Source: a virus | Reading direction: 5' to 3' (one strand) | Virus record (IMG/VR): IMGVR_UViG_3300044742_000375 | DNA: 64,000 nt | Shown: positions 4,433-46,672 of the stretch, piece by piece | Layout: each line of letters begins with the position of its first letter | Numbering within the stretch: the first letter of the stretch is position 1 | Notes under the pieces: generated by a model | What the model saw: only the letters and a program-made list of their open reading frames with translations | Told to the model about the DNA's origin: nothing | Databases searched by the model: none | Program-made: the position numbers and the translations under genes

Positions 4433-4447
4433 TACGGGAGTGAAACC

Positions 4448-4603: not shown

Positions 4604-4617
4604 TACGGGAGTGAAAT

Positions 4618-28200: not shown

Positions 28201-31200
28201 ACTGGCAGATGTTTAGCGGCGTCACGCGCCTTCTGAAATTTGGCGCCGTGCTCTATGACTTCCTGGATCGGACGCAACGCGTAGTCGAGCAACGTGTATT
28301 CACTGGCGCTCTTGGGCGCTCCGAAGCCCAGGGACTTACGCACCCAGTGGGTGAAATAGGCCCAGACCGACTTCGCGCCACGCGGTTCGAAGCCAAAGAA
28401 CTTCATGCCCTCGCGGAATCCCGGAGATAAACTTCCCGTCGTCGCCGCCGCCTGGACATGCGGGTTGGTCATGAGTTCCGATACGAGTTCGTGATTATTT
28501 GTCACGGCGTAAGCGACATCGCCAGCTTCAGCCAGATGCGAGTTTTTTGCGCCTCCGATTCGTTTGGCAAGCTCTTCGCGAATAAGATCCAGTGCCTGGA
28601 TATGAAAATGCCACGGCTCGTTCCGTTCCAGATGATGGATATAATTTTGCGTGGCCGAGTGTAACCCCTCGTGGACCATGGTCATGGCCGCGTGCGAGGT
28701 GTTAATTGGTATGTTCTCCACGCTCAACATTATGTGAGGCGGTACGCGTCCTGGTACCCCAGAGACGTCGCTGTATCCCTGTAATTTACCCGTGAAAAAG
28801 TCGTCCCTGAGATCTTCCCCCATCCATTTGAGTCTGAATGTTTCAGCACCGCTGTGCACCGGAAGGTTTGGCGCGAGGCTTATGAGTTTATGCGCCAGTG
28901 TCGCCAGTTCCGGCGCCTCGGCGCGGACCACCGGATCGTTGGCGATGATCCGGTAGGCGTCGTGCGACATGGGCTGCACGCCATTGAATACGGCGTTATC
29001 AAACCAGGCCAGCAGGTTGGCGCCGAGTCGGTGATCGGTCGCCATCTTGTAACCGCGTGACGAACGCGGATCTATTCCGTTGGTGATTGGTAACGGTGGT
29101 TCCGGCGCGGACGAAGTGTCGCGCATCGACGCCTGGACGTTACGCCTACCCATCGCCCCCTTGAGCGCGGCGCGGTCGGCCATGGCCTTGGCTTCGTCGG
29201 AAATAACACCGACAGGATCGACGAGTTCCCTGCGCGCCGCCCTCAATTGTTCAACGCGTTCGAGAGCGAAATCAGCCAGCTTCGCTTCCAGTTTGGCTTC
29301 TCTCGCGTCTTTCCGCGCCACCGCGCGATCATACGCGTCGGTTCCCGGCGTGCCTTTTATCTCCACGCTGACCGACTTGCGCAGAGCTTCCCGATCCTTG
29401 CTCGCGTTCTCTTCGTTGGTGACACGGTTGATCTCGGTATCGAGCGCCTCGGCCATCGTACGGAAACCTTCCGAGCGGGGCCGTCCCATGTTGTTCTTCG
29501 GATCATACTGGGAGGCGGCTTCCGTGGCCGTCGTCGGGTCGGACGTATCGAGGATCTTCTTGATCCAGTCACCCGACGTACGATTGACGTCGGTAGCCTG
29601 GGTAACCTCCTTGTTCTTGGTCTCCAGGCCCATGGTCAGCCCGGCGCTCTCCCCCTCCCCACCACCTACCGCTTTTGTTTCTACGTCTTCGGCTTTGGCC
29701 GGACCCTCCGTCGCGCCGCGTGTTTGTTCTTCTTCGCGAACAACGGAAACTTCGCCGCGCGTGGGCTCCGCGTCGGGGTCGACGACGGCTTCGCCGAACT
29801 TCTTACCGATGTTCTTCTCGTAGTACGCCCTGGCGACTTCCTGCCGCGCCTGAGTAGCGACCTCGGGCTCTCCCGCCCGTGGCTCCATCAGCGCGTGCGT
29901 CATCCTGGTGATGTCTTCGCGCGAACCGTCGGTCAGGTTGACCAGCCGCCCAAGATCCTCGACCGCTTTACGCATGGCCGCGCCCTTGGGCGTGCCGGGC
30001 GGAACCTCGCCAACCACGGTCCGCGTGACGAAACTGATATCTTCCAGCGCCTGATCGCGCGCCAGTTCCGTGGAGCGCGCCGCCTGGGCTTCTTCCGCCG
30101 TCGGCTCGGCTTTCACTTCTTCGGCGACATACGGCTTCGGCTCGTTGGCTTTCCTCTCGATTACTACCGTCGTTGTCTTGGGTGGCTGACGACCCTTGGG
30201 TTTCTCAGCCGCTTTGGGGCCGACCTTTTTTACCGGCGCCTCGACCTCGGTGGAGATGACCGCCTTGGTGGGCGCGGGTGCCTCGACGGGGGGTGGGACG
30301 TGCCCTCTCGTTAGTTCTTCTTGCTCCCGCATGACCCGGTCATAGGTCTCGTTAAGCTCGGCGAGCTTCATCTTACCGGCGTTTTTCACGCCCAGGGTCC
30401 GCAGTTCCTCGCGCTTCCTCTGTGCCTCCTGGGTCTTCGTCTCTTTTCTGGGCGCGGGCGCGCTAACGTTTCGCACTTCTTGACGGGGCTCGGCGACGAG
30501 CGTGGACAAAACCTCTGGCTCAGCGCCGGGTCTGAAATCCCTGGTCGCCGCCGCCTCGCCTTCCAGTTCGGTGACACGGGGCTCGGGGCCAACCCCCGCC
30601 GCTTTATTCTCGGCAACACGGCGTGTAATGCGCAAACCTTCTTTGCCGGTACCGTCCGTGGCCAGGGATGCCGTGCCCCAGGCTTGCCCTTTGGCATCAG
30701 CCAACATGCCATTTTTTATATGCGTTATAGGAACGGTCTTACGACCTTGGTCGGTGACAAGCTCGACCGTGTGCCCGGCGGCGAGCGCCTTCTCGGCTTC
30801 CGCCGTCAGCGCGTCGGCACCCTTTTTCATATCGTAGCCGGTCCCGGCGAACTTACCCTCGCCCTCACCAGCGCTGCCCGCTTTAAGCAGCCATGCCCGG
30901 TCCAGGACAGTGGTGGCGGGCTCAACCCCCGCCGACGCCGAAGGGAGTGAATTCTCCGTCGCCGACGGGGCACTACTGTCTCGCCGGGGCGTGACCGCTT
31001 CGCCAGTAGTGGAGGTTACTCCTGTAGTATCCGGAGGAGTCCCTGTCGATGCGCCGCGCTCGGCTTCGACGCGGGCCAGACGTATGCGCAGCCGGTCCGC
31101 CGACTCGTTGGGGTTGACGGTCTCGCCATGCGTTCTCAGCGCGTCGATCAAATCGGTCTTCTTCATCGACGCGTAGGCGCTGATGTCGGGCGCGGGCGTG

Positions 31201-32906
31201 CGTGGCGGCGGGGGCGTGGGGCCTGGGGGCGGCGGCGTGGGGCCTGGGGGCGGCGGCGTGGGACCTGGGGGCGTGGGACCTGGGGGCGGCGGCGTGGGAC
31301 CTGGGGGCGGCTCGACGGCCGTGGTGGGTGGCGGTGGCTCACGCGGGAACATCTCACCCTGCGTGGGCGGCGGTTGCGTGATGCGCACACCGGGATCAAA
31401 CAGCCCGCCTTGTTGCGCTTCGGGCGGCATGCCCGGCTGGACACCCGTGATGATCGGCTGGCGCGGAGCCAGACCAGTTTCGGCGCCGCTGAACATCTCT
31501 CCTTGCGGAGACATGCCGGAAAACTCCATCTGGCCGGGCGTACGCGGGTCGGGTGGAGGCGGCGGGGGCATGGGTGACGTGGGCGGCTCGGGCGGCTCGG
31601 GCGGCTCGGACGGCGGCAACGCCGCGTCCAACGCCCCGGCCACGTCGGGAGACACGTCCGGCGTGGGCCGGGCACGCGGTCTGGGCGGATGGATGGCACC
31701 GAACACCATGCCAAGACCCGCGCCGCCAAGACCCGCCGCCACGGCGTTGGCGCGGATCGCGTCGGTGTCGTAACCTTCACGGATACCAATGCCCTGCTCG
31801 GCCTGTTGGCCCAGCGCGGTGGTGACCCCGGCCTGCCCGGCCATGAGCCCGCCCATCTCGGTGGCGCCCACGGCGGCGCCCAAAGCGCGGTTCCTGAGAC
31901 CCGTGCTGGCGATGGGCGACGCCGCGCCGCGCGCCAGGATGCTGGTAGCGCCCGCGCCCGCCAGCCCACCCACTCCAAACGCCTGGAGCGCCATGGGCGG
32001 GATGGTTTGCTTGATGAGTTCGGCCTTGGCCGCTTCGTCGGAGTAACCGCCACGCCGGAATTCGGCGTAAGCGGGCGACTTCATCATCTCCGCTTCCGAC
32101 GCGTGCTTCACCACGTCGGCGACACTGTTGTAAAGCACGCCCATGTTCTGCGCGCCGCCCTGCAACGCCGACTCGCCGACACCGAAGCCCGTGCCCACCG
32201 CCTTGGCGGTCTTCGCCACCGCGCCCAGCGACGACATGACCTTGGTGGCGAGCTTGGCGGTGACCGTGGCGGGGAGCAGCGCCAGCACGACCGTCGGCAC
32301 CATCGCCATCGTATTGTAATGGAAATAGTTGAACCACCCGACTTCGCCGGGGGACGGGATGTGATTGCCCTTGGCGTCGGTGCCGCCGCCGAACAACGAC
32401 ATCAGGCTGGCGGACATGATCTTTTGCAGTTTCGGGTCCGAAAACCCCCTGGCGACCTCCGCGTCCAGCGACTCGCGCTGCCGTTCGATCCAGGTTTTCG
32501 TTTCAGGATCGGATGAGAGTTGCTGCTCCGCGAACCGCGCCGCGCCCATGATGTCGGCGGCGTTGGACAGCACGCCCTGCCACATCACCGAGCCGGTATT
32601 CTCAGCCAGTTGCCCGAGCCAGCCTTTCTCGGGCGGCGGTGGCGCGGGCCGTCCGTACACCGCCAAAGGTTTCGCGTTCGGATCAATGTCGGCGAACGAC
32701 GGGCGCGGCTGCGCGCGAACCGCCAGCGGCGTCGGCGGCGCGGCGCGCGTCAGGCCAGTGCGTTGCGGCAGCGCGTAACCACCCGGAGAAGGCTGGATCT
32801 GTTGGAGTTCTCGCCGGTCCGCGAGATCCTGTTCCTGGGCCAGGGCGGACCCACCCTCTTCCGGCGCGTTTAATACGGTAGTATCGCCCTCGTCATCATA
32901 TGCCAT
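25257..32906 (-). CDS. giant (2549 aa) virion-associated polyvalent-type protein with zincin-like HExxH motif
   Basis: track ORF; HEGLH at 28659-28673; N-terminal Gly-rich hydrophobic segments; PGPTPPPP repeats; two HeH/SAP-like motifs (MKKTDLIDALRTHG, KMKLAELNETY); position after the SLT protein. Confidence 0.85.
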   Translation of the reverse strand: MAYDDEGDTTVLNAPEEGGSALAQEQDLADRRELQQIQPSPGGYALPQRTGLTRAAPPTPLAVRAQPRPSFADIDPNAKPLAVYGRPAPPPPEKGWLGQLAENTGSVMWQGVLSNAADIMGAARFAEQQLSSDPETKTWIERQRESLDAEVARGFSDPKLQKIMSASLMSLFGGGTDAKGNHIPSPGEVGWFNYFHYNTMAMVPTVVLALLPATVTAKLATKVMSSLGAVAKTAKAVGTGFGVGESALQGGAQNMGVLYNSVADVVKHASEAEMMKSPAYAEFRRGGYSDEAAKAELIKQTIPPMALQAFGVGGLAGAGATSILARGAASPIASTGLRNRALGAAVGATEMGGLMAGQAGVTTALGQQAEQGIGIREGYDTDAIRANAVAAGLGGAGLGMVFGAIHPPRPRARPTPDVSPDVAGALDAALPPSEPPEPPEPPTSPMPPPPPPDPRTPGQMEFSGMSPQGEMFSGAETGLAPRQPIITGVQPGMPPEAQQGGLFDPGVRITQPPPTQGEMFPREPPPPTTAVEPPPGPTPPPPGPTPPGPTPPPPGPTPPPPGPTPPPPRTPAPDISAYASMKKTDLIDALRTHGETVNPNESADRLRIRLARVEAERGASTGTPPDTTGVTSTTGEAVTPRRDSSAPSATENSLPSASAGVEPATTVLDRAWLLKAGSAGEGEGKFAGTGYDMKKGADALTAEAEKALAAGHTVELVTDQGRKTVPITHIKNGMLADAKGQAWGTASLATDGTGKEGLRITRRVAENKAAGVGPEPRVTELEGEAAATRDFRPGAEPEVLSTLVAEPRQEVRNVSAPAPRKETKTQEAQRKREELRTLGVKNAGKMKLAELNETYDRVMREQEELTRGHVPPPVEAPAPTKAVISTEVEAPVKKVGPKAAEKPKGRQPPKTTTVVIERKANEPKPYVAEEVKAEPTAEEAQAARSTELARDQALEDISFVTRTVVGEVPPGTPKGAAMRKAVEDLGRLVNLTDGSREDITRMTHALMEPRAGEPEVATQARQEVARAYYEKNIGKKFGEAVVDPDAEPTRGEVSVVREEEQTRGATEGPAKAEDVETKAVGGGEGESAGLTMGLETKNKEVTQATDVNRTSGDWIKKILDTSDPTTATEAASQYDPKNNMGRPRSEGFRTMAEALDTEINRVTNEENASKDREALRKSVSVEIKGTPGTDAYDRAVARKDAREAKLEAKLADFALERVEQLRAARRELVDPVGVISDEAKAMADRAALKGAMGRRNVQASMRDTSSAPEPPLPITNGIDPRSSRGYKMATDHRLGANLLAWFDNAVFNGVQPMSHDAYRIIANDPVVRAEAPELATLAHKLISLAPNLPVHSGAETFRLKWMGEDLRDDFFTGKLQGYSDVSGVPGRVPPHIMLSVENIPINTSHAAMTMVHEGLHSATQNYIHHLERNEPWHFHIQALDLIREELAKRIGGAKNSHLAEAGDVAYAVTNNHELVSELMTNPHVQAAATTGSLSPGFREGMKFFGFEPRGAKSVWAYFTHWVRKSLGFGAPKSASEYTLLDYALRPIQEVIEHGAKFQKARDAAKHLPVEPRLREAAEPMARTASDAFGERTGRLAERAYHAVGDRLGAAKAHVLLQSIHLDRMVDSFGHVMQDGDVNHIKDVRAVMERADVAGQRFLKDFAGEAGEITRELVKHDDVAALMNDAGYARAALGTRELAQNAHLTSAEDRAQLAALQTRFDTMPAEKQALYTKTRDFLTKKYAFERQAVADNLVNRFMPNATDAEKALMRMTMASKTRLDAFLADPDNAGIADERKRIAKGMAKLTRMGFVDGDYFPMRRYGDFAVEYGGAHGTPEYGVQFFEKHSEAAAFRAQQIADNVADVGSVRERHEIVTQNKGRLSPVVEDMIDAVRRDPAFSRAQADQLEEMAGHLQLRYASGWEKATARRRYVAGASKDVARAINTDVSATSRRIGTIMHGGERDAAFEKMKHFVDEKGRDTGNPDNTTRDRIYHELQKRFQRGDELDQTGGWGIARRFAQFGYAQNLLSLSRAPVETYEMTSKMLTFIGARYGYGRGALELGRALTAIGPQLVGKGGKNTIDALIGKPLSSANYKFTEIARQRFLDRGYDRSEVDALFKHFEANGLWGNTEGGFLRELSRPTKLGGAWDRFLEISSALTQATDEMGRIAGTMAAFRTARGKGVSVPDAINFAEDTLRKAPNYSSTNRARITTEKGSLKGAAPAIMQFKMYGLNESWLIANMMRNSFGPGVDKAVRIEAAKQFAGTIMMHSLAAGALTWLADPVRYLGGAYDLMTGHTPKERMSAMRSWLADTMGPTLGEVVGAGVPHAFGVDMQHRLGVNNMFNLPQLNGYAPKDFVEAAGTFVLGSPGGAAVNVASGFMKMLQGGLSGGLHDMASGAAVALPRIVRDPIKAGLLADRGVVDPRGKEILAPEKISPLDVGYQALGFAPSRVTEAREGRQAIVQARQQVADTRSRLVRRWLEADPGDRAAVWSEIAQYNASREVNLGSKITRDQLLQQLNERRKGKLHPGAFGLRLPKSSERQLMEYGAFANH
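31205..31311. repeat. tandem 24-nt-type repeats encoding (P)PPGPTPP units
   Basis: GGCGGCGTGGG(G/A)CCTGGGGGC iterated about 4-5 times on plus strand. Confidence 0.8.
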
Positions 32907-32909
32907 GGT

Positions 32910-35900
32910 TCATGCCGCCCTGGATAAACCCTGCCTCGGTAACGCCGACATATTACCCATCGGATCAGTAAGCGGCACGGAAGGCGCGTTGGTGTTCATG
33001 GGTGGCGGCGGTTTCGCTGGCGTCAGCGCGGGCGCGGGCGATGGGACGGGCGGCGCCACGTTGGGAGCACCCTGTAAGGGCGCCGACCCGGCCAACCCCA
33101 GCAACGGTTTGATAAGTTCGCCCTGCTCATACGAGAGCGGCGCGGTGCCCACGTTCTTACCCTGCTTGTCTCTGACGGCGTACACGGGGGGCTTACCGGG
33201 CTGGGTCGCCATGAGGGCCAGGTCGTATTTACCAGCGGCCAGCCCATCCGCGTACATCTTGGCGGATGCCTGGCTCATATCGCCGCCGCCTTGCGATGGG
33301 ACCTTACGGATCTGCCGGTAGATATCAGCCGCGCGTTCGTATTCACCTTCGGGCGCGTCTTTAGGACGTTCCGATGGCGGATAGGCTTTTTCAACATCCG
33401 CTTCAAGCGCGGTGTTACGTTCGGCCCTGAGCGCGGCTGTTTCCTGCTGATGCCGTTCGGCCTGCTCGGTTCGCTCCCGTATGCCCTGCTGACGCAGATG
33501 CTCTTTCTCGATACCGGCGCGGACCTGTTCCTCCTTGATGCCCGGCAGTTGCTTGTAATACTCCGTATGCGCCCTATCCAATTCCATCTTGGCGTTTTCT
33601 TTTTGGTGGGCCTGCAATGTTTTCACGTAGGTGACCGGGTTCTGCAATCCGATGATCTGCTTCGCGATGTCTTCGTGCGTGACCTGGAACGGCTGACCCA
33701 CGGGGGTTCCGTTTCTGTCCGACAACCGATAAGCCCAGATGTTGCCTTTGTTGTCGGCACCGAAACGAGCATAGGTGCCGTCGGGGAAGAACGCGTGCGC
33801 CTTGGCGAGGTAGCCAATCGCCGTCTGGGGGTCCTTGCTCATGATCGCCTGATCGGCGGCGATCAGGTTCGACACCGTGCCCTGCTGGCTCATTTGCGCG
33901 ACCCACTCGCCCGCCATGCCCGCCTGTTCGGGATGCCCGCTGATGATGAGGTAGCTCTCCAGAGCTGATTGAGCCGCGCGCCAGCGGTCGGACATGCCCA
34001 GTCCCGCCGGTCCCGTCTCGACCAACCCACGTAACAACCCGTCGGGCCCCTCGGCCTGAGCGCGCTGGTACAAGGCCACCGCGTCATAATTTTTATGGTT
34101 GCCACTGACCGCCGTGATGGGGATGTCCGCCAGTTTCGAACCGGGGAACATTTTCATCATGTCGACGACCTGACTTTTTTGTTCCGGACCCTGCGCGGCG
34201 TAACCATCGAAACCGTGTTTGGCGACACCGTTCAGGAAATCATAGCCGCCACGGTACACCATGGCGTTTTGCAACGTATCGGAACCCAGGCCCTGATCGA
34301 GTGCCTGTGTCTTATAGAGCCGCACGCCCAGCCGGATGTTCTGCTCCGGGTCGCGCCAGTCCAGTTCTCCACGGGGGTCTATGCTGCGTCGCGTACCGTC
34401 AATGATTTGTACAAGCCCCTTGGCGCTGGATGTGTATCCCGCCGCGCTCGTGCCGTGACTGATGGCGTTGTTCCAACCGGCGTTCTCCCGCCCGATGGTG
34501 GCGAGCATGAATTCGGGGGAGACGATACCCTGGGCGCCTTCCGCCGCGATGGCGCGCTCGACCATGGCGAGGCGTTCCGGATACCGCGTCTTCGTGTTGT
34601 TGTAGTGGCTCATGTCCACGGGCGGGGCCAGCGCGGGCGGCGTCCCCTCGGATTGCAGGACCTTGCCGCCGGTCCCCGCCACGGCGACCGGCGCGGGCGG
34701 CGGATGCGTGGGTGGGTTCTTATCCACGGTGGGGGGTTGCGCGGGCGTGATGCCCGTGGGTTGCGCGGGCGCGGGCGCGGGGGGTTGCCCGTACGCCGAT
34801 TGCGTCGGCGTCGGCGCGGGCGCGTTGGGGTCGCCCTGGCCCACCGGACGGGCGGGCGTGATCTCGGCGGCCTGGGCCGAACCCATGGGGTTGATCATGC
34901 TCAGGATGCGCCCACCCAACGAGGACGCTCCACCCATCGGCGTGGCCGGTGACGGCGCGGGGGGCGGGACCGACGTGGGGGGTGTCGCCTGGGCCGGGGA
35001 GTAAGGCTGGGGCGGCGGCAGGCCGCGTGGGTCTTGCTGTTGGGGTGGTGAGATAAACCCGCCGGGCTGGCGGCTCGGGATGGGCTCGGTACCGGGAGCC
35101 ATGACGGGCGGCGGGGGTTGGTAAGGTTGCGCGACGTCCGCCGGGGGAACGGCGGGCTGCGGCATCGTGTATGACGGAACACGCGGGTCTTGCTGTGGCG
35201 GCGGCGTATAAGGTCCGCCTGGCTGACGGCTCGGTATCGGCTCATTGGTGGGAGCCATGACGGATGGAGGCGCGGGTACGGGCTGCAACGAAGCTCCGAC
35301 CGGCTGGTTGGTTATCGCGCTGGGACCGCCACCCGCGCCCACGGTGGCGCCAACCGGCCTGTTGGTAGGCGTCATGGGCCAGGGCGGCGTACGTGTCGGG
35401 TCCGGCACCGCCCCGTGCGCGTCCACATCGGACTGTACGCCGGGGGACGGCGCGTTGAACTGACGCGCGTAACCAAGCGCGGCACGGTCAGGCATCTGAG
35501 CGGGGCCGGTGGGCTGCGGCTGAGTAGGCCCGTAAGCCGGGTCACGAGCCATGGCGCGCCGCGCCTGATGTTCCGCCAGCGCGCGGTCGACATCGGCTTG
35601 CGACGTCTCCTGGGGATGTAATGTCTGCGTACCGACGGGATTATACGGGTCCCATGGGTAGAGCGCGCGCGGCACGCCACCCACCATGGGCGTGCGCGGA
35701 TACCCGCCTCCCGTGATCCACGGATCGTTCTCCGTGCCCGCCGCGCTACGGTTTTGCCCCCGGAACGACGGGGCGATATCGCCCTCGGTCAGGGGTGCCG
35801 GTGGGTAAGCGGGTTCGGGCGGACGCGTCAGGATATCCGGTTTGGCTTCCGGCGCCGCCGTGGGCGTGGGGGCGGGCGTGGGGGCGGGTAGCGCCGTCGT

Positions 35901-36125
35901 TCCGGGAGCCCTGGTGAAATCCTGCGTGCCTGGAACCTTGCTGGCCCCGGTTCCAGCCAGACGTTTTTTCTCGTCTTCCTCGCGCGCCAGCCGACGCTGC
36001 TCGTCATACTCGTCCAGCTTCACCTGACGACGCACACCCTGGTATTCTTTGTACAGACTGAAGATACTCTGCGCGCCGCTGAACAACCCGCCAGCGAACG
36101 ATCCCAGATAAATCCCACCAGCCAT
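32910..36125 (-). CDS. internal virion/ejection protein with lytic transglycosylase (SLT) domain and about 430-aa Pro-rich region
   Basis: track ORF; SLT motifs IGRENAG (Glu about 34485-34487), GLVQII, YRGG at about 34236-34583; N-terminal hydrophobic segment. Confidence 0.85.
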   Translation of the reverse strand: MAGGIYLGSFAGGLFSGAQSIFSLYKEYQGVRRQVKLDEYDEQRRLAREEDEKKRLAGTGASKVPGTQDFTRAPGTTALPAPTPAPTPTAAPEAKPDILTRPPEPAYPPAPLTEGDIAPSFRGQNRSAAGTENDPWITGGGYPRTPMVGGVPRALYPWDPYNPVGTQTLHPQETSQADVDRALAEHQARRAMARDPAYGPTQPQPTGPAQMPDRAALGYARQFNAPSPGVQSDVDAHGAVPDPTRTPPWPMTPTNRPVGATVGAGGGPSAITNQPVGASLQPVPAPPSVMAPTNEPIPSRQPGGPYTPPPQQDPRVPSYTMPQPAVPPADVAQPYQPPPPVMAPGTEPIPSRQPGGFISPPQQQDPRGLPPPQPYSPAQATPPTSVPPPAPSPATPMGGASSLGGRILSMINPMGSAQAAEITPARPVGQGDPNAPAPTPTQSAYGQPPAPAPAQPTGITPAQPPTVDKNPPTHPPPAPVAVAGTGGKVLQSEGTPPALAPPVDMSHYNNTKTRYPERLAMVERAIAAEGAQGIVSPEFMLATIGRENAGWNNAISHGTSAAGYTSSAKGLVQIIDGTRRSIDPRGELDWRDPEQNIRLGVRLYKTQALDQGLGSDTLQNAMVYRGGYDFLNGVAKHGFDGYAAQGPEQKSQVVDMMKMFPGSKLADIPITAVSGNHKNYDAVALYQRAQAEGPDGLLRGLVETGPAGLGMSDRWRAAQSALESYLIISGHPEQAGMAGEWVAQMSQQGTVSNLIAADQAIMSKDPQTAIGYLAKAHAFFPDGTYARFGADNKGNIWAYRLSDRNGTPVGQPFQVTHEDIAKQIIGLQNPVTYVKTLQAHQKENAKMELDRAHTEYYKQLPGIKEEQVRAGIEKEHLRQQGIRERTEQAERHQQETAALRAERNTALEADVEKAYPPSERPKDAPEGEYERAADIYRQIRKVPSQGGGDMSQASAKMYADGLAAGKYDLALMATQPGKPPVYAVRDKQGKNVGTAPLSYEQGELIKPLLGLAGSAPLQGAPNVAPPVPSPAPALTPAKPPPPMNTNAPSVPLTDPMGNMSALPRQGLSRAA

Positions 36126-36863
36126 CTACGTTATCCCCGCTTCGTGACGGAGCAGGGCCAGCGACGGGGCGACGGCGTCTATGACCACCTGCAACCGCGC
36201 GTCGTACTCGGCCCATATTTCCGGATGATACTTCTTCAGGTAGGCGGCGCGCCCCTCGCCCCACCACGCCGAGCATCGCGCGCACTCGGGCGAGTTCGTT
36301 ACATAATCATAGACCCTGGGGAGCGGGACGTTCCGCTCCCTCAGATAGGCGAACACCCGGTCGTGCGACCAGTTCAGCAACGGATACCATAGCTCGACGC
36401 CATCGGCGACCGCGCCGTCCTCGGCTGGCAGCCTGGGCATGTCCACCCGCTTGGTGCCGCGTATGAGCAGGGTGTTCTTGTCGTCGTACACGCGCTTGAA
36501 GAGCGGCCACATCAGGTTCGCGTAACAGCAATCGTATCGCCCGACCAAACGAGCGGTAGCCTGTCCGAGATGATGTCCAACGACATGACTATGAAAAGGG
36601 AGCAGGTCCGTCGGCAACCCGTTGGCTTCAATCCATTTGGAAACATCCGTCTCAACACGAACGAAGTGAGGCGCGAACGCCTCCACGCGCGCCACGCTTT
36701 CGCGCATCTCGGGCAGCAGGTCACCTGTGTCCAGGTGGTAGATCGTGATCCCGTCGAGATACTCCCGTAGTAACTCCACGACCGCCATGGAGTCCTTGCC
36801 CCCCGAGAACGAGAGCGCCCGCTTGCCGGGCGCGTGCCTCAACAGGGGCGCGAGGTCGATCAC
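36126..36863 (-). CDS. PAPS-reductase-like PP-loop ATPase
   Basis: track ORF 36126-36881; SFSGGKDS PP-loop; preferred start GTG 36863 (GTGA overlap with upstream stop), alternative GTG 36881. Confidence 0.8.
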   Translation of the reverse strand: MIDLAPLLRHAPGKRALSFSGGKDSMAVVELLREYLDGITIYHLDTGDLLPEMRESVARVEAFAPHFVRVETDVSKWIEANGLPTDLLPFHSHVVGHHLGQATARLVGRYDCCYANLMWPLFKRVYDDKNTLLIRGTKRVDMPRLPAEDGAVADGVELWYPLLNWSHDRVFAYLRERNVPLPRVYDYVTNSPECARCSAWWGEGRAAYLKKYHPEIWAEYDARLQVVIDAVAPSLALLRHEAGIT

Positions 36864-37519
36864 CGCCTCACCGCTTTCCACAGGATCGGACGCAGCCCCT
36901 TGAAGATCAGGTTGTACAGATGCTGGTTGGGCATCAGGGAGCGGAACACCGCGTCGCTGCCTCGGGGCAACACGAACGACTCCAGGTCCCAGTCGCCCGC
37001 GCGCGCCACCGCGCGGAGCATGTCGAAGGGGATGAACCGGGCGTTCAGATGCTGGTGCGCCAGCGCGTCGTCCCCATCGAAACGAACGTAGTCGTAGACG
37101 AACAGCTTGCCGCCGGGCCGCACCACGCGCGCCGCCTCGCGCAGCGCGACGACGAAATCATCCGCGTGGCACAGCGAGTACAGGAACATCGCCCCGTCGA
37201 ACTCGCCAGGATCGAACGGCATGTCGTGCATGTCGCAGCAGAACGTCGGCATGTCGGGAGGGCACTTGGACAGCTGAAACGTATTGTTGTTCACCAGCCA
37301 GAACATCAGGTCGGGGCGTAGCTCCTTCATGAGCTTGGCCGGTTCGCCGAAGCCGCAACCGAGATCCACCCATTTGGTGCCACGGCCAGGAGCCATGAAC
37401 GCGAGCAACGCCGCGACGTGCCCCTGGTCGGTGTCCTCCAGGCGGAACCCCTGCAGCACGCGCAGACCCTTTTTCAGCGCGATCTCGGAAGCGGTGGTGA
37501 GCTTGTCCTGGTCGGTCAT
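36860..37519 (-). CDS. class I SAM-dependent methyltransferase
   Basis: C-terminal 219 aa of track ORF 36860-37693; ATGA overlap at 37516-37519; motif I VDLGCGFGEP, VVRPGGKLFVYDY; no DPPY/NPPY DNA-MTase motif. Confidence 0.8.
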   Translation of the reverse strand: MTDQDKLTTASEIALKKGLRVLQGFRLEDTDQGHVAALLAFMAPGRGTKWVDLGCGFGEPAKLMKELRPDLMFWLVNNNTFQLSKCPPDMPTFCCDMHDMPFDPGEFDGAMFLYSLCHADDFVVALREAARVVRPGGKLFVYDYVRFDGDDALAHQHLNARFIPFDMLRAVARAGDWDLESFVLPRGSDAVFRSLMPNQHLYNLIFKGLRPILWKAVRR

Positions 37520-38385
37520 ACCGCGATGGCCATCACGCCGATGCCAGCCGCCGCGCCGACCATGCTGCCGATACCCGAGGAGGTGTTCTGCGCGATGGCC
37601 GCGTTGGCGTTGAACCCGGCCATCTGGTTTTGATAGCCCGCGTTCGTCGCGCTGATACCCGTGGCCTGCGAGGCGTTGGCGGCGCTCGCCCACTGCGTCG
37701 GGTTGCCCATCATGGAGCCATAGACGTTCGATGTGTTGATCCCGGCGTTGATGCCCGCCCCGCCTTGCCCGGCGGCTCCGGTGCCAGCCCCCACGGACCC
37801 GCCATATTCGGTGGTGACCTGACCAGGGTAGCCTCTGCCCACGTTGACCGCCGCCGTCTCCAGCCCGCGCCCCACCGCTTCGGTCTGCAGCCTGGACTGG
37901 GTGCCCGCGCTGGCCTGCGCCGCCGCCTGGGAGATGCGCGCGCCCAGGTCCAACGCGCCGTAGCGGGTTTGGCTGGGGTCTATGTTGTACCCCTCCAGGG
38001 TCTGTAGCGCGGCGTTGCGCTGGCCCGAGAACGCCGCCGACACGTCGCCTTGCGCCATCGCCGATTGCTGCGCCGCGCGTTGGGGCGAAGCGTAAGCTTG
38101 CGCTTCGGACGCCAGCCGGGCCTCGATGGGCTGATAAGTGCTTTCGTAGAAACCTTGCGCCTTGCGCGCGTTGGCCAGCTGTTCGTCCTGCGCGGCCCTG
38201 GACTGATCGGACGCCAAAAGCATCTTATCCATGAACGCCTTGGTCTGCGGCGCCTGATCGGCGTATTGTTGCTTGGCCCAGTCCAGTTGTTCCCTGGAGA
38301 CCTCTCCTTGTATCCTCGCCGCTTCAGAGGACGACTGCGCTATCGGCGAATAATCCGGAGCCTGCGGCGCGCTACCCTTGGCCAT
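37516..38385 (-). CDS. putative internal virion protein (289 aa, Gln/Ala/Gly-rich, C-terminal hydrophobic segment)
   Basis: track ORF; TAATG overlap upstream; composition and position only. Confidence 0.6.
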   Translation of the reverse strand: MAKGSAPQAPDYSPIAQSSSEAARIQGEVSREQLDWAKQQYADQAPQTKAFMDKMLLASDQSRAAQDEQLANARKAQGFYESTYQPIEARLASEAQAYASPQRAAQQSAMAQGDVSAAFSGQRNAALQTLEGYNIDPSQTRYGALDLGARISQAAAQASAGTQSRLQTEAVGRGLETAAVNVGRGYPGQVTTEYGGSVGAGTGAAGQGGAGINAGINTSNVYGSMMGNPTQWASAANASQATGISATNAGYQNQMAGFNANAAIAQNTSSGIGSMVGAAAGIGVMAIAV

Positions 38386-38843
38386 TACACATGCTCCGGT
38401 GTGTTACTGCGATAGTGTTTCGGTGTCAGGGCCAACCATTTGCACTGGGATCGCTCCATGGTCAGCACGATCAGGTCGGAACCGTCCGAATAGGTGTCGG
38501 TGATGCGCGCGGCGGGGACGAACCCCAGACGTACATTCACCGCCATGGCCCTCGCGTTGGCTGAACTGACGAGACCGATGACTTTCCGGCAACCCAGTTG
38601 GACGAACGCGTAATGGAACACCATCCACAGGAAGTCCCGTGTCGCCCAGTTATCCTCCGATCCGGCCATGTGCACCGTGATCGACGCGCCCAGGTAACCC
38701 GTGAACACCACGCCCCCGGCGATCTTGCCGTCACGATGCAACGCCACGGTGTGATCGGTCTTCTCGTTGAACACGCCGCCCACGCGCAGCATGATCCAGT
38801 CGCCGTCGCCGGGGTGGTTCACGCGGACTTCGCGGTGGCTCAT
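38385..38843 (-). CDS. GNAT-family N-acetyltransferase
   Basis: track ORF; VQLGCRKVIGLVSSANARAMAVNVRLGFV resembles GNAT motifs A/B; ATGA overlap upstream. Confidence 0.65.
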   Translation of the reverse strand: MSHREVRVNHPGDGDWIMLRVGGVFNEKTDHTVALHRDGKIAGGVVFTGYLGASITVHMAGSEDNWATRDFLWMVFHYAFVQLGCRKVIGLVSSANARAMAVNVRLGFVPAARITDTYSDGSDLIVLTMERSQCKWLALTPKHYRSNTPEHV

Positions 38844-39043
38844 CTGAGTTTGGCCTGGATATCAGCCGCGCTGACCAAACCCAGATCGACCAAATCCCGC
38901 AACGTGACCGCCCGGTCGAGTGTCCCGCCACGGAACCCGGCCAGCGACTCGACGCCCTGACGCAGCTGCATGACGACCGACACGAGCGCGTTGACGTCGG
39001 CCTGGGGTGACGAGATGGCCGGGATGTTGGGGTTCTTAGACAC
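38840..39043 (-). CDS. hypothetical virion-module protein (67 aa)
   Basis: track ORF; overlaps both neighbours. Confidence 0.55.
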   Translation of the reverse strand: MSKNPNIPAISSPQADVNALVSVVMQLRQGVESLAGFRGGTLDRAVTLRDLVDLGLVSAADIQAKLR

Positions 39044-41249
39044 CTTTCAACTCCCTCATCGTCGATGCGAGTTCGACACTGTGAACGGCCACGCGCGCGA
39101 TGATCTCGAATTGCCAGTTGAACGCTTTACGACCGGACGGCAGGCGGAAGATACACCTGGGTTGCTGCAGCCACTCCTCGTGAACCAGTTGCTGAGACGG
39201 CCCCGCGAATATCCGGAAGATGGCGTTCACGCCGTTAGGCAGGTTCAGGGTGCTCATGCCGTCGGTGGGCGGCGGGATCGCGTCCTTGGGCTTGGGGAGG
39301 CTCACGTCGGGATCGAGCGATATCTGGCACGCGCCCAGTGATACGGGAGCGGGGAAGTAGAATTCCCGCGACCGCCACCGGTATGTCAGGACCGGCGTCT
39401 CCATGCTGTCCCAGCGGTAGACCGTCTGGTCGCCCACCATGTAGGTGTCGCCCGTGTAGACGTCGTTCCACACGCTCACGATGCCGACGAAGGGGCTCAG
39501 CGAGCAGATACCCAGACGCTGTTCCGTGTAGTCGATGACGAAACCCATGCCAGTGCCGTTGACCGCGAGGTATTGCGCGCGGTGCCGGGCGGCGACGAGG
39601 CTGTCGCCATGGAATCGTTTCAGCCAGATCTCACGGGTGAGGTTGCTCAGGGTCTGGTTCTGCGCGCCGTAGTAATTGATCGCCACCAGACCGTTGGGCG
39701 AGGAGTAGTAAATCCCCGCCAGATCGGTGACCAGCGAACCACGCGAGATGCACGGCTCGGCGGTCTGGATCTGCGCGAAGGTGAACTGATCGGGGCGGTT
39801 ACCCACCCCGGCGCTGGGGAACCCGGACGTGAGCACGATGAGTTGCTGCTGCCACACGCCCATGGCGACGATCTGGTAAAGCAGGCTCTGATCGTAACCG
39901 GCGGGCCACGCGTTGGGCCGGTTGGGCTCGCAGAAATGCACGGTGTTCTCGGTGAACGCCACCATCATCCCACCGGCCATGGACAACAACCCGTCCAATC
40001 CGTCGACGGGGGGAGCGAAACTCACGCTCTGCAGGATGTTGTTGTTCACGACCGTCGTATTGGGGATGCGGTCGTCGTAGCTGGTCGTGCCGAAGGGCAG
40101 GTCCACCACGAAGTAGAACTGCGCCCCCGCCGTGGCGGCGACCAGCGTGCGATACAGGCGTGTCTTCACGGGCGGCGGGTAGTATCTGCCCGTCGGCGCG
40201 ACGGGCGCGGTCCTGGGCAGGTTGGTGACATGCCACACGCCGTTACTCGGACCAGCGACGACCAGGGACGGCGCGGACGGAGAACTCTCGGTGCCGTACT
40301 GGTCTATGAACGTGTAGCAGTAGGACCGTTCCTCCAGGGGCGGCGCGCCGGTACTCTGCCACGTCACGTCGAGCAAACAGAGTTGCCCCGGCCCACCACC
40401 GACGACCCGGGTTTGCACGGGGTTCGGCGGCAACACGGTATAAGACCCCGCGTTGACCATCGCTACGTCCCGTACGCCCATGGTCAAGGTGATGGCGGCG
40501 CCCGTGAGTCCGCCTCCCGCCACCGGCTCGATATCGACGTTGGTGGGGTTCGTCGTGTAGGCGCCGGGATCGGCTATGCCATCCACCGAGTACAGTGTCC
40601 CGCTGGATATGATGCCCCGCACCTGGGTCAGCACGCCGACCCCCGTCGTGCCGGTAAGCGTCACCGGCCCGTCGGTGCCTCCCGTCCCCGCCGTGCCGAA
40701 ATGACTGCGGGCGCTGATCGCGAACGTATGCGCGATGCTGACGACCATCGGCTGACCGCCCTCGGCGAGCGTCCCGCCAAAAACAGACAGTTGCTGCCCC
40801 GGTATGTATCCGGTGCCCGCGTCGACGATGGTCGCTCCATACCCGGTCATCGCCGGAAGGGTCCCACCCGATACCGTGACCACGGGCGCGGCCCCGGCTG
40901 ACGAGTCGGGCGGTAGGAACCCCATGCTCCAATGCGCGTCGGTTCCCGAGTTACCGGCTTTAATACGGTCGTAAGTATTCCACCACGCGCCCGCGTCCGG
41001 CGAACCGGGCGGGTTGGTCCAGAAGATCCGGTGCAGTGTGTCATTGGCCAAAGGCGACACGCACACCGAGGAGAATTCGCTCGGCAGGGGTAGCCACACA
41101 TCCGGATCGCCCGACTCGGGACCGGGTATCCGATAGGCTTTGCGTACCGGCCAGGGCGCCATCCCGGCCAGGTTGATGATCGGCTCGGGTTGGGGGAGCC
41201 CGTCCAACGGACCATGCGCCAGGTCGGTGTTGGTCGCGCGCGTGGCCAT
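39036..41249 (-). CDS. large tail protein (737 aa), possibly nozzle/tail-tube type
   Basis: track ORF; size and position in a podovirus-like module; no SD seen at 41249, start uncertain; function is inference. Confidence 0.6.
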   Translation of the reverse strand: MATRATNTDLAHGPLDGLPQPEPIINLAGMAPWPVRKAYRIPGPESGDPDVWLPLPSEFSSVCVSPLANDTLHRIFWTNPPGSPDAGAWWNTYDRIKAGNSGTDAHWSMGFLPPDSSAGAAPVVTVSGGTLPAMTGYGATIVDAGTGYIPGQQLSVFGGTLAEGGQPMVVSIAHTFAISARSHFGTAGTGGTDGPVTLTGTTGVGVLTQVRGIISSGTLYSVDGIADPGAYTTNPTNVDIEPVAGGGLTGAAITLTMGVRDVAMVNAGSYTVLPPNPVQTRVVGGGPGQLCLLDVTWQSTGAPPLEERSYCYTFIDQYGTESSPSAPSLVVAGPSNGVWHVTNLPRTAPVAPTGRYYPPPVKTRLYRTLVAATAGAQFYFVVDLPFGTTSYDDRIPNTTVVNNNILQSVSFAPPVDGLDGLLSMAGGMMVAFTENTVHFCEPNRPNAWPAGYDQSLLYQIVAMGVWQQQLIVLTSGFPSAGVGNRPDQFTFAQIQTAEPCISRGSLVTDLAGIYYSSPNGLVAINYYGAQNQTLSNLTREIWLKRFHGDSLVAARHRAQYLAVNGTGMGFVIDYTEQRLGICSLSPFVGIVSVWNDVYTGDTYMVGDQTVYRWDSMETPVLTYRWRSREFYFPAPVSLGACQISLDPDVSLPKPKDAIPPPTDGMSTLNLPNGVNAIFRIFAGPSQQLVHEEWLQQPRCIFRLPSGRKAFNWQFEIIARVAVHSVELASTMRELKGV

Positions 41250-42533: not shown

Positions 42534-45020
42534 TCATTTGCGGCTCCTTAGTTGGTGAATCTGCTCCTGCAACTCTCGCACCGCGTTCACCAGCGCGGCG
42601 ACGATGGGATCAGTGCGAACGCCCATTATCTTGCCGTCACCGACCAGATCTCTCCACGCGGCGTCCGGCGGGTCCATGTCTGTCACCGCTTCCGGTAAAA
42701 CCGTTCTGATCTGTTGCGCGGAGAAACCGATCTCGGGCCGCTCGGCGCGAACTTTGGTCGCCGGGTTCCAACGATGGAACACAATCGGTCTGATGCCCAG
42801 GATGGTGGCCAGACCGTGCTGAGCATCCGTGATATCGCGCTTGCTGCGTTCGTCCGATACCGTCACGAAAGAACCCAGCCCGCCGACCGCCCCGGCGAAG
42901 TTGACCGAACTCCAGTCGGAGCCGTTGAACTGCCAGTTGGTGCCGCCGCCCGAGGCGTACGTGAGAGCATTAATGGCGGTGGTGAAATACCAGTTATACT
43001 GCGGGGTGTATTGGATCAGGTAGAGACCGGACCCGGAGAAAATCCGGAAGTTCGTGTCCGGGCCTGGATAGAAACCCGCTCCCGCCTGCATGCTTTGGGC
43101 GGCCTGGGCGTCGCCCGTCGGACCAATCCTGAACGTGGCGACGCTGGCTTCGACGAACTCCCATGTCCTATTGGCCGGATCGCGCGCCAGATAATAACCG
43201 TTGTTGTCATTGACGATGAACTTGCCCGTCGAGTTGTTCATGGCCTGACAGGTCAGGTTACGGCCCACGACCACGTCGGTGTCCGCGAAAATCGTCGGTG
43301 CGTGGACACCCGCGCCGAACGTGACTTTCTCCAGCAGCACCTCGGACCCAGGATAGCGCGTCACCGTGATCCACGGCCTGACCAGGACTCCGTTGTCGCT
43401 GATCGCCCGCCCGATCAGTTCATGGTTCACGATGGAAAAATCATAAGCCCGGCTGTCCACCGCGCCAGCCGTGTTGTTCAGGAAGAACCGGGGCGTGGCG
43501 TAACTGATATTCAAACCCCCAGATAACGTCCCACCCGTCAAAGGCAGATAGCTGCCAGTTATGGCCATGGCCTGTTTGACGAAAGCCGTGGTCGCGAGTT
43601 GTGTCGTGTCCGTATTAGCCGGTGCCGTGGGCGCGGCTGGTATGCCCGTGAACGTGGGGCTGGCCACGAGCGCGCCGCCAACGTCGGTGACATCCTGAGT
43701 CGTCAGCGTGACCGCGCCAGAGCGGCCATTGAAGGTGCTTACTCCGGTAGTGGACGCGACGACGGCCGACGTGACGAACTCCGTGGTGGCGAATTGTGTC
43801 GTCTGCGTGCCGGGCGCCGCCGTGGGGCCCGCCGGAACGCCCGTGAACGTCGGATTGGCCAGCGGCGCGCCACCCACGTCGATGACGTCCTGGGTCGTCA
43901 GCGTGACCGCGCCCACGCGGGTGTTGAACGACACCACGCCCTTGGTGGAGACCGTGTTCACGGCGTCGGTGACGAACGCCGTGGTGGCGATGGATGTGTC
44001 GTTGTCTCCCGGCGCGGGCGTGGGAGCGGTTGGGTTGCCCGAGAACGTGGGCGAGGAGAGGAGAGCGCCGCCCACGGATGAGATATCAGCGGAGAGAAAC
44101 GTGACCGCGCCAGAGCGGCCATTGAAGGTGCTTACCCCCGTGGTGGACGCGACGATGGCGGACGTGACGAACGCCGTGGTGGCGAGTTGTGTCGTCTGCG
44201 TGCCGGGTGCCGCCGTGGGCGCGGCGGGGGTGCCCGTGAACGTGGGGCTGGCCACGGGCGCGCCGCCCGCGTCGGTGACGTCCTTGGTGACCAGCGTGAT
44301 CGCGCCCACGCGGGTATTGAACATCGTTACGCCAGCGTTGGCGGCTTTGCTGTCCACGTACCATTTGGCGACGGCTTCGAACTGACCCACTGGCGTGGCC
44401 TGGGACAGGGTGAGCAAGCTGCTGCCCATGTGCACCGGGCCGGTGAACGTGCCGCCCGAGATTGGCATGAACGATCCGCCGGGCGCCGCCCCGGCCACCA
44501 CGCCATCCACGTAAGCCTTGGTCGCCGCCTCGGTCGGATAAAGCGGATCATGGAAGAGATAGAGTTCCCCCTCCATCATGCCGCCCAGGATGTTCAGATA
44601 CCGGTCACCCGGCTGCTGCCCCGCTCCCCCGGATGGTGGCGGCGGCAACGGCATGGGTTGTTCCGGCGGCACGCCCGTGACCTGGACACCGACCTCGAAC
44701 GTGATGCGGCGGTTCGTCGAACCGTCCAATATGAATTGCAGCGTATAGGCCACGCCGGACGTGCCGAACTCGACGAAGATGATCAGCTGCCTGTGCGTCG
44801 CGTCCAGCAACACCTCGCGCAGTATCAACGGCGTGGGATCATACGGCGGCGGACTGTCGGGCGGCGGATAGGGGGCTTCCGACCAGCCCGACATGCCCTG
44901 GATGACCTCGGACGAAACGATCTGGGTAATGATCTCGTTCACGTCCAGCCACCACGCCATGTCCACGACGATGCGCGTGATGTCCGGCGGTTCTTTATAT
45001 ACCCGCGCTTGCAGTGTCAT
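42534..45020 (-). CDS. tail fibre/spike with C-terminal intramolecular chaperone (S74-type) domain
   Basis: track ORF; AGGAGA upstream; four about 65-aa fibre repeats; C-terminal SDERSKRDI...ELQEQIHQLRSRK (about 42537-42866). Confidence 0.85.
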   Translation of the reverse strand: MTLQARVYKEPPDITRIVVDMAWWLDVNEIITQIVSSEVIQGMSGWSEAPYPPPDSPPPYDPTPLILREVLLDATHRQLIIFVEFGTSGVAYTLQFILDGSTNRRITFEVGVQVTGVPPEQPMPLPPPPSGGAGQQPGDRYLNILGGMMEGELYLFHDPLYPTEAATKAYVDGVVAGAAPGGSFMPISGGTFTGPVHMGSSLLTLSQATPVGQFEAVAKWYVDSKAANAGVTMFNTRVGAITLVTKDVTDAGGAPVASPTFTGTPAAPTAAPGTQTTQLATTAFVTSAIVASTTGVSTFNGRSGAVTFLSADISSVGGALLSSPTFSGNPTAPTPAPGDNDTSIATTAFVTDAVNTVSTKGVVSFNTRVGAVTLTTQDVIDVGGAPLANPTFTGVPAGPTAAPGTQTTQFATTEFVTSAVVASTTGVSTFNGRSGAVTLTTQDVTDVGGALVASPTFTGIPAAPTAPANTDTTQLATTAFVKQAMAITGSYLPLTGGTLSGGLNISYATPRFFLNNTAGAVDSRAYDFSIVNHELIGRAISDNGVLVRPWITVTRYPGSEVLLEKVTFGAGVHAPTIFADTDVVVGRNLTCQAMNNSTGKFIVNDNNGYYLARDPANRTWEFVEASVATFRIGPTGDAQAAQSMQAGAGFYPGPDTNFRIFSGSGLYLIQYTPQYNWYFTTAINALTYASGGGTNWQFNGSDWSSVNFAGAVGGLGSFVTVSDERSKRDITDAQHGLATILGIRPIVFHRWNPATKVRAERPEIGFSAQQIRTVLPEAVTDMDPPDAAWRDLVGDGKIMGVRTDPIVAALVNAVRELQEQIHQLRSRK
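43535..44324. repeat. four about 65-aa fibre repeats arranged as a duplicated two-unit (about 393-nt) block
   Basis: FN(T/G)R.GAVTL...GGA..(S/N)PTF(T/S)G.P.APT.....T..ATT(A/E)FV x4; long near-identical DNA at 43708 and 44101. Confidence 0.8.
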
Positions 45021-46318: not shown

Positions 46319-46672
46319 TTACATTGACGACGAGCCGTTATCCAACTGATTGATAGCGGCCTCGGCGGCGGTCCAGAACGTGGTCCAATGACCGGCCAGG
46401 GTGTTCATCGCGAACTCGTAGTCGGTACCGTTTTTGCCCGGCGTGACGCCGTCGGGAACGATGCCGAAATTGTTCTGCACGAACATGTTACCTGGCGTCG
46501 TCATATTACCCGCCTCGTACTGGGTGCCGGGAGTACCGACGTAACCAGCCGAAGCCGTGGCCAGGGCATCCTGCAGCCGCGCCATGGTGGTGTTCAGGCC
46601 GAGCAGCCTGCCCACGGTCTGGTTGGTCATGCTGCCGAAAGTCGTATTGGTCGGAATGATAAGAGCGGCCAT
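46319..46672 (-). CDS. hypothetical protein (117 aa)
   Basis: track ORF; TGATG overlap with fibre stop. Confidence 0.6.
   Translation of the reverse strand: MAALIIPTNTTFGSMTNQTVGRLLGLNTTMARLQDALATASAGYVGTPGTQYEAGNMTTPGNMFVQNNFGIVPDGVTPGKNGTDYEFAMNTLAGHWTTFWTAAEAAINQLDNGSSSM

Follow-up and report, generated by a model that had tools for sequence, protein, structure and literature searches.

In a 64,000-nucleotide stretch of viral DNA (IMG/VR record IMGVR_UViG_3300044742_000375; hereafter the window), three enzyme-like genes lie on the minus strand inside the late operon of a podophage of the Bcep22/Mx8 supergroup. They encode a GNAT-fold protein (38385-38843, 152 aa), a class I S-adenosylmethionine (SAM)-dependent methyltransferase (36860-37519, 219 aa) and a PP-loop protein of the PAPS-reductase superfamily (36126-36863, 245 aa), and the gene for an internal virion structural protein (vsp; 37516-38385, 289 aa) stands between the first two. 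We show that across related loci the PP-loop gene is never found together with a Peptidase_S74 domain on vsp, and that the methyltransferase belongs with the PP-loop gene. The reading we favor, though with somewhat less than even confidence, is that the three genes encode late, unpackaged, non-structural maturation enzymes for vsp, and that they are neither metabolic genes nor a three-enzyme DNA-modification module. They would act as two units, one being GNAT and the other the PP-loop enzyme with an optional methyltransferase.

The evidence centers on the C-terminal end of vsp. In the window, this protein (phrog_8003 'virion structural protein', E=4.3e-47) ends in a hydrophobic tail rich in Gly and Ala (...AAAGIGVMAIAV), exactly where relatives carry Peptidase_S74, and a profile check found no S74 domain on it. 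In all 15 of the PP-loop-bearing phages that we inspected, vsp ends 0-1 residue past the hydrophobic tail and the next gene encodes the methyltransferase or the PP-loop protein; four such phages used as controls had no S74 domain on vsp. In phages without the PP-loop gene, vsp runs 24-91 residues beyond the tail, and the extension is a Peptidase_S74 domain directly after the tail in nine of ten isolates, one of the nine scoring below threshold. Isolates with S74 on vsp include Mx8, LASTA, Itty13, Parlo, Pavtok, POI1126, Atu_ph08, and Skulduggery. The junction in these proteins has the consensus '...GLGxxAGxGxMAF' followed at once by 'SSKxxKExK': vsp of Itty13, for instance, reads ...GLGTVAGLGMMAF and continues into SSKELKEDK, whereas Bcep22 gp70 reads ...GLGTIAGAGIMAF and stops. 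Because S74 starts directly after the tail, at the point where vsp of PP-loop-bearing phages stops, the mature vsp proteins of both kinds are colinear. A domain of the endosialidase/tail-fiber type thus occupies the very position at which, in the window, vsp meets its stop codon and gives way to the genes for the methyltransferase and the PP-loop protein.

The loci compared comprised 56 from IMG/VR found via the PP-loop protein, 7 from bacterial genomes (mostly alphaproteobacterial prophages), several metagenome contigs, and 80 more found via a homolog of Bcep22 gp67, a virion protein that forms the upstream anchor of the conserved block and is encoded 5' of the GNAT gene in related loci with a detectable homolog. 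For this last collection a broad alignment was too divergent, and a narrower one was used, with which 336 gp67-like loci were found in all; all loci of the comparison were scanned with local profiles. Among the 125 loci with a GNAT gene and enough downstream sequence, 95 carry the PP-loop gene (34 of them with the methyltransferase), 29 carry S74, one carries neither, and none carries both. Dereplication at 90% GNAT identity leaves 87 lineages: 63 with the PP-loop gene (26 with the methyltransferase), 23 with S74, one with neither, and none with both. The sample drawn via the upstream gp67-like gene gave, in a first scan, 39 loci with the PP-loop gene, 16 with S74, three with neither, and none with both. 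The S74 profile of that scan was too narrow and missed canonical S74 domains, which produced the three false 'neither' loci (L157, with a canonical S74, among them), and a second profile was used for the final counts. The sole lineage with neither S74 nor the PP-loop gene is Rhizobium phage RHph_TM3_14A (locus L007, 2417-3505), where 91 residues of another type (…VDDVPANLNVGEFVIPEDVVSWYGEKHMYGLIDKA…) extend the C-terminal end of vsp, possibly a third solution.

PP-loop-bearing and S74-bearing lineages interleave on neighbor-joining trees of the gp67-like protein, vsp, and GNAT. Parsimony over 100 bootstrap replicates gives 4-5 switches in 100% of replicates on the gp67-like tree and at least three in 99 on the vsp tree, from which we infer at least three to four independent switches between S74 and the PP-loop gene. 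The slot of the PP-loop gene is fixed in every lineage examined. A PP-loop enzyme that supplied in trans what S74 supplies in cis at the C-terminal end of vsp would predict just such a strict either/or pattern, repeated several times.

The methyltransferase and the PP-loop protein are the only obligate pair among the three enzymes, with the methyltransferase as the dedicated partner. The window methyltransferase (Methyltransf_11, E=1.4e-13; 51.7 bits against a cut-off of 21.2) has motif I, VDLGCGFGEP, at residues 51-60 (37340-37369), and the family alignment shows D52, G54, G56, D96, and D108 to be invariant and all SAM-binding motifs to be kept. The (D/N)PP(Y/F/W) motif of DNA amino-methylases is absent from it, and its nearest solved relatives are natural-product (small-molecule) methyltransferases. 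No homolog was found in 50,697 isolate phage records. Of 48 PP-loop clusters, 21 contain the gene, which invariably shares the strand of the PP-loop gene and adjoins it, in either order; even its most divergent homologs lie directly 5' of, or overlap, a PAPS_reduct gene. Among 1.8 billion representative proteins, a search with the family profile recovered 193 members at E<=1e-30. Single-chain fusions of methyltransferase and PP-loop protein make up 12 of the best 150 representatives, in both orientations; one (L075) occupies the same slot, between vsp and the SLT-domain protein, and a second is found in L033. The existence of fusions accounts for the two window proteins matching different parts of the 460-column phrog_424. 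The long methyltransferase representatives carried no informative extra domains.

The sequence-only reading had considered a three-enzyme modification or anti-defense module plausible. The methyltransferase and the PP-loop gene do co-occur, but the three together do not behave as one module: GNAT and vsp are found without the other two enzymes in at least ten isolated phage genera, and the PP-loop gene is found without the methyltransferase in 37 of the 63 PP-loop lineages. We also considered whether the small methyltransferase stands in for the DarB methylase that the giant protein of the window lacks. No DarB-type methylase or helicase was found within 10 kb downstream in any metagenomic locus, with or without the methyltransferase, and there is therefore no correlation behind the idea of compensation.

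GNAT, for its part, is universally paired with the downstream vsp. The pair is found without the PP-loop gene in Klebsiella phage LASTA, Rhizobium phage TM3_14A, Myxococcus phage Mx8, Pseudomonas phages Skulduggery and Itty13, Serratia phage Parlo, Erwinia phage Pavtok, Ochrobactrum phage POI1126, Agrobacterium phage Atu_ph08, and Ruegeria phage 45A6. A possible exception is a metagenome contig (SRR30224782_19474; L074, 2838-3335) with an unrelated 165-aa protein in the usual GNAT slot. The window GNAT (phrog_4470, E=2.6e-37) is 31-34% identical to its Bcep22-type homologs, and its AlphaFold model (predicted local distance difference test score, pLDDT, of 92) has many GNAT matches at a template-modeling (TM) score of ~0.65 (SpeG, RimI, and RimL-like proteins, TM 0.6-0.7), so that the fold is shared with RimI, RimL, and SpeG; similarity in sequence to these proteins lies in the alpha3-beta5-alpha4 core. 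It differs from them in that Pfam GNAT models score below threshold (14.9-15.7 bits against cut-offs of 25-27) and in that the canonical Q/RxxGxG/A loop, which binds the acetyl-CoA pyrophosphate, is replaced by a loop that reads S-E-D-N-W-A-T, with Trp in place of Gly. This Trp, W66, is the sole invariant residue in a broad alignment of the family. A role as a DNA modifier like Mom of phage Mu was considered and rejected, as there is no profile similarity (hhalign probability 0.3%). N-terminal acetylation of vsp by GNAT is possible but less favored, since vsp of Bcep22 and LASTA has 60-residue N-terminal extensions and the terminus is not conserved as such. As annotated, these two proteins (gp70, L001 10955-11950; gp04, L008 7367-8626) begin ~60 codons ahead of the conserved 'KGGxAPxPD' start region, and the additional residues contain a hydrophobic segment; the extension is either a real, signal-like one or a mis-called start overlapping the GNAT gene.

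The PP-loop protein (PF01507 PAPS_reduct, E=1.2e-13; 51.9 bits against a cut-off of 22.5) belongs to a family in which we detected 616 relatives, and it is 40-45% identical to the 'PAPS reductase-like' proteins of the Bcep22 group (Burkholderia) and the GP4/Gervaise group (Ralstonia). SGGKDS (residues 20-25, at 36789-36806) is invariant in the family, as are DTGD..PE (DTGD at 36720-36731), the C112-C113 pair (36525-36530), and C194-x-x-C197 (36273-36284) followed by AWW. The four cysteines, invariant in 37 sequences, align with the CC and CxxC of the mycobacterial APS reductase 7lhr, and may hold a [4Fe-4S] cluster at a putative Fe-S site. The AlphaFold model (pLDDT 95) has the Fe-S APS reductase 2goy as its best PDB match in Foldseek (E=4e-9), followed by CysH, TtuA, TilS, and GMP synthetase. 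Structure searches with the models bore out the assignment of both folds, GNAT and PAPS reductase; a fold search in BFVD yielded nothing specific beyond this. The CysH-type APS/PAPS reductases (2goy, 1sur, 7lhr; TM 0.55-0.61) are the best structural matches; the window protein shares DTG with them and, like APS reductases of the Fe-S type, spaces its cysteines as CC...CxxC. However, the window protein has the intact P-loop of an ATP-type enzyme, and the substrate-binding Arg-Lys that follows the CC pair in 7lhr is Asn-Leu in the profile alignment. No cysteine follows CxxC in the window protein, in Bcep22 gp73, or in Gervaise gp26, and one occurs only sporadically, in 2 of 37 family members. 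Since the catalytic C-terminal cysteine of the ECGLH type is absent, the protein is not a CysH or other sulfonucleotide reductase; NCBIfam models of the CysH type also score far under their cut-offs (PRK02090 35.3 against 154 bits, cysH 23.2 against 165, APS_reductase 21.3 against 235). Judged by its motifs, it is an ATP-pyrophosphatase-type member of the PAPS-reductase superfamily.

How might these enzymes serve vsp? We propose that vsp is made with its hydrophobic Gly/Ala-rich tail as the C-terminal end, and that GNAT, encoded immediately upstream of vsp, most likely acylates vsp or otherwise assists it. The PP-loop unit would take the genomic and, by extension, the functional place of the S74 self-cleaving intramolecular chaperone of vsp: the PP-loop enzyme would use ATP to adenylate an oxygen of vsp, with the C-terminal tail as the likeliest site, for replacement by sulfur or nitrogen, and the methyltransferase, where present, would methylate the product of that step. 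The enzymes themselves would stay out of the virion. The choice of vsp as substrate, of the atom modified and of the chemistry is inferential, the chemistry being drawn from what PP-loop enzymes generally do. The sequence-only reading had allowed that the enzymes may modify virion proteins, and this suggestion gains comparative support from the exclusivity of the PP-loop gene and S74. Maturation of vsp is further favored by the embedding of the genes in the operon, the absence of the enzymes from virions of phage JC1 (see below), the acidic isoelectric points (pI) of the PP-loop protein and the methyltransferase (medians 5.9 and 5.3), the non-DNA type of the methyltransferase, and the universal pairing of GNAT with vsp. 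A narrower proposal, namely that the PP-loop enzyme and its fused or adjacent methyltransferase chemically modify the vsp tail, e.g. by adenylation of the terminal carboxylate, thio- or amido-substitution, and methylation, and that this pair has repeatedly replaced S74, seems to us possible but doubtful.

Several points weigh against maturation of vsp. We know of no member of the PAPS-reductase family that acts on a protein, and the characterized members that act on macromolecules, DndC, SspD, and BrxP, act on DNA. The trees are neighbor-joining trees only, and about half of the loci were collected via the PP-loop protein itself. Part of the exclusivity could have a structural cause: recombination between common flanks may exchange the S74 segment for a stop codon and a PP-loop gene, as alternative alleles that need share no function. 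Peptidase_S74 is a cis-acting, self-cleaving folding domain that needs no cofactor, whereas the window has separate ATP- and SAM-dependent enzymes, so that their functional equivalence is suggested only by mutual exclusivity; moreover, vsp of S74-bearing phages presumably ends with an ordinary free carboxylate, which makes the need for a modification in phages without S74 puzzling. GNAT, which has no canonical acetyl-CoA loop, may not be catalytic. Finally, the PP-loop protein of JC1 is only 44% identical to that of the window, and low-copy packaging could escape proteomics. A chemical modification of vsp is hypothetical.

An alternative with a clear precedent in the superfamily is DNA modification or anti-defense, in which a DndC/SspD-like PP-loop enzyme and the methyltransferase would mark progeny DNA late, before packaging, or interfere with a host phosphorothioate defense; we consider this less likely than maturation of vsp, but a serious rival to it. 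The window protein shares with DndC, SspD, and BrxP the superfamily, SGGKDS, and conserved cysteines suited to an Fe-S cluster; in fold, and in combining SGGKDS with four cysteines, it is similar to PAPS-reductase relatives of the Fe-S kind. In PADLOC, however, it has no match to DndC, and the matches that it does have are weak and short: to SspD at E=2.4e-5, within residues 21-72, to BrxP at E=8.9e-5, and to QueC in the last 50 residues. No Dnd or Ssp partner (desulfurase, DndD/SspC ATPase, DndE/SspB; DndA/D/E, SspA/B/C) was found with PADLOC and PHROGs among the neighboring genes or the ~25 largest open reading frames (ORFs) of the window, the small ORFs not all having been scanned. A position beside a DarB-like giant would, on this alternative, mark an anti-restriction cluster, as Bcep22 relatives have a DarB-like antirestriction giant downstream; yet the genes lie in a structural operon and not in the replication module or a defense island. 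The association of PAPS and methylase domains recurs in phages. A PAPS-Dam methylase fusion gene of a Vibrio podophage allows escape from Dnd when it is transferred together with a single phage-specific neighbor (Piel et al., bioRxiv 10.1101/2021.05.05.442762), and here too a phage PAPS-reductase-like domain is joined to a methyltransferase. The partner in that fusion is, however, a Dam-type DNA adenine methylase encoded in a variable early region, whereas in the window it is a Methyltransf_11 enzyme of the small-molecule class I type, with no DNA-methylase motif, encoded in a late structural operon. Both the PP-loop protein and the methyltransferase are acidic and have no DNA-binding domain, and a DNA target leaves the exclusivity with S74, over at least three to four switches, unexplained.

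The same exclusivity, together with the fixed slot after vsp, is unexplained if the pair instead makes or destroys a metabolite or signaling nucleotide late in infection, for example a nucleobase that is both thiolated and methylated, or else an adenylated cofactor, and merely happens to lie in this operon. This we find improbable. The APS/PAPS reductases, CysD, and FAD synthase of the PAPS-reductase fold, and the PP-loop protein YcfA of another fold, act on nucleotides and are all among the fold matches, and the natural-product relatives of the methyltransferase and the acidity of both proteins fit such chemistry; but the PP-loop subfamily is found only in structural contexts of phages and prophages, and no other pathway genes lie nearby. 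Quite improbable, in our view, is the idea that the enzymes enter the virion in low copy number and are injected together with the DNA, as polyvalent-protein domains are, for early action on host targets. The genes do stand among those for ejection proteins, and RimI-like GNATs have been described inside polyvalent proteins or solo beside late structural genes, as in the window, and read as deployed with the capsid (Iyer et al. 2017, PMC5512222). According to the JC1 paper, however, virion mass spectrometry detected gp64 (the vsp homolog), gp68, and the giant gp69, i.e. proteins flanking the enzymes, and found neither the acetyltransferase gp63 nor the PAPS reductase gp65, which speaks against the packaging and injection envisaged in the sequence-only reading, and packaging again does not account for the exclusivity with S74. 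The published annotations (GenBank records and two papers) regard the genes as 'morons' for acetylation and sulfur assimilation, that is, auxiliary metabolic genes for a CysH-type PAPS reductase that serves sulfate assimilation and a RimL-like acetyltransferase of benefit to the lysogen. The names and the Pfam PAPS_reduct match aside, this is very hard to credit and is already contradicted by the sequence: the CysH-type cysteine, the APS-binding Arg-Lys, and the CysH-type model scores are lacking and the P-loop is that of a canonical ATP pyrophosphatase, as set out above; the genes have no promoter or terminator of their own, overlap their neighbors at start and stop codons, and keep a fixed position in every lineage examined; and the lifestyle of the phage appears to be virulent. 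A role in tRNA modification was also rejected, with no tRNA gene in the window and nothing linking the genes to translation.

On the minus strand, genes extend from near 62.6 kb, where a portal-like gene lies, down to 25.3 kb; among their products are a major head protein, tail-fiber proteins, and internal virion proteins. The three-enzyme region is near the distal end of this late operon. The plus strand from 1 to 24.7 kb is a replication module with DNA polymerase, helicase, primase/helicase, and exonuclease. No integrase was found among the large ORFs scanned in the window, and with its own replication module the window phage may be virulent, unlike the temperate Bcep22 group. Upstream of GNAT lie the gp67 homolog (39036-41249, minus strand, 737 aa; phrog_511, E=3.3e-85), which is variously labeled 'head closure', 'internal virion protein' or nozzle-like, and a small gene (38840-39043, minus strand, 67 aa) that is the positional equivalent of Bcep22 gp68, has homologs in the same slot of related loci and overlaps both neighbors, by GTGTCTAA upstream and ATGA downstream. 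Downstream of the PP-loop gene, an SLT-domain ejection-type protein (32910-36125, minus strand, 1071 aa; SLT E=1.7e-4) begins right after the PP-loop stop codon, a position kept in relatives; its lytic transglycosylase domain lies at ~34311-34541, and its N-terminal half is long and Pro-rich.

The last gene of the operon encodes a giant polyvalent-type protein (25257-32906, minus strand, 2549 aa) with only a weak Pfam match, to LPD39. Its residues 2152-2520 match positions 4256-4617 of the phrog_10089 profile, homology to DarB-like polyvalent giants being confined to the C-terminal ~400 residues, and it lacks the SLT, methylase, and helicase domains of these relatives (Bcep22 gp75 has methylase and helicase). 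A zincin-like HExxH sequence (MTMVHEGLHSATQ; HEGLH at 28659-28673) occurs in it, and a Pro-rich repeat, (PPPPGPT)n, starts near 31310. A second very large gene of the structural operon (46672-53496, minus strand, 2274 aa) has collagen-like and tail-fiber repeats and matches more than 30 PHROG tail-fiber families. A further tail-fiber protein (42534-45020, minus strand, 828 aa) has internal repeats (TTQLATTAFVT) and a C-terminal end that matches the C-termini of several tail-fiber PHROG families; by eye this end resembles an S74-type chaperone, and if so the phage would have S74 on a fiber and not on vsp.

Much of what the sequence-only reading had taken directly from the letters stands. The three minus-strand ORFs are real genes: the ORFs of GNAT, vsp, and the PP-loop protein have a GC content at third codon positions of 0.79-0.82, as is usual for genes of this genome (the screen missed the methyltransferase ORF). 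VDLGCGFGEP and SGGKDS are present and (D/N)PP(Y/F) is absent from the methyltransferase, and the interleaved gene does encode an internal virion protein, as its phrog_8003 match and the presence of its homolog gp64 in JC1 virions indicate. The overlaps are as described, the junctions along the block reading GTGTCTAA, ATGA, TAATG, ATGA, GTGA, and TAG directly followed by ATG; for the PP-loop gene, the GTG start at 36863 is preferred over 36881 because of the family consensus M-x-D.... Between 32 and 42 kb we found no sigma-70-like promoter, and the number of terminator-like hairpins, 8, is close to the 7.1 that chance would give. This is consistent with a single operon, and with the earlier view that the enzymes are embedded in, and apparently cotranscribed with, the internal and ejection virion genes.

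At the DNA level the window has no close relative among the 50,697 isolate phage records. Two IMG/VR loci (L009 and L010; UViG 3300005294_000068 and 3300005295_000064) encode a PP-loop protein 100% identical to that of the window in the same gene order, and probably represent a single phage, recovered within one study. Relatives of the PP-loop protein also occur in genome contigs (L066-L070) of Rhodospirillales, Reyranella, Neoroseomonas, and Hyphomonadaceae assemblies, which points to hosts among the Alphaproteobacteria, and to prophage forms, in some of the group.

From their annotation, Bcep22-like phages (Lessievirus, Gervaisevirus) were known to have GNAT and PAPS-reductase genes at this position. 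The block there runs gp67, gp68, gp69 (acyl-CoA N-acyltransferase), gp70 (virion-associated protein), gp73 (PAPS reductase-like), gp74 (virion-associated protein), and gp75 (DarB-like giant), and the window shares this order and these families; in both, vsp ends at the hydrophobic tail. The window differs in the extra methyltransferase between vsp and the PP-loop gene, in having SLT in a separate 1071-aa protein, and in a giant that has neither methylase nor helicase. What is new here is the dedicated methyltransferase partner, with fusions in both orientations, the division of the three genes into two separate units, and the finding that the PP-loop gene and S74 on the adjoining virion protein strictly exclude each other, a pattern that by our reconstruction evolved repeatedly.

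'PAPS reductase' genes are among the auxiliary metabolic genes most often reported in phages. The PP-loop subfamily of the window, tied by comparative genomics to one neighboring virion protein, offers a concrete hypothesis for which cultured phages (JC1, Bcep22, and the Ralstonia GP4/Gervaise group) are at hand. Were the DNA-modification alternative true, phages would have a new anti-restriction system in the methyltransferase-PP-loop cassette. If instead the enzymes mature vsp, hundreds of phage genes would receive a corrected annotation, and virion assembly would have a trans-acting enzymatic alternative to intramolecular chaperone domains. The chemistry of PP-loop/PAPS-reductase enzymes would then extend to proteins, with a new kind of post-translational modification of a virion protein and a first protein substrate for the family.

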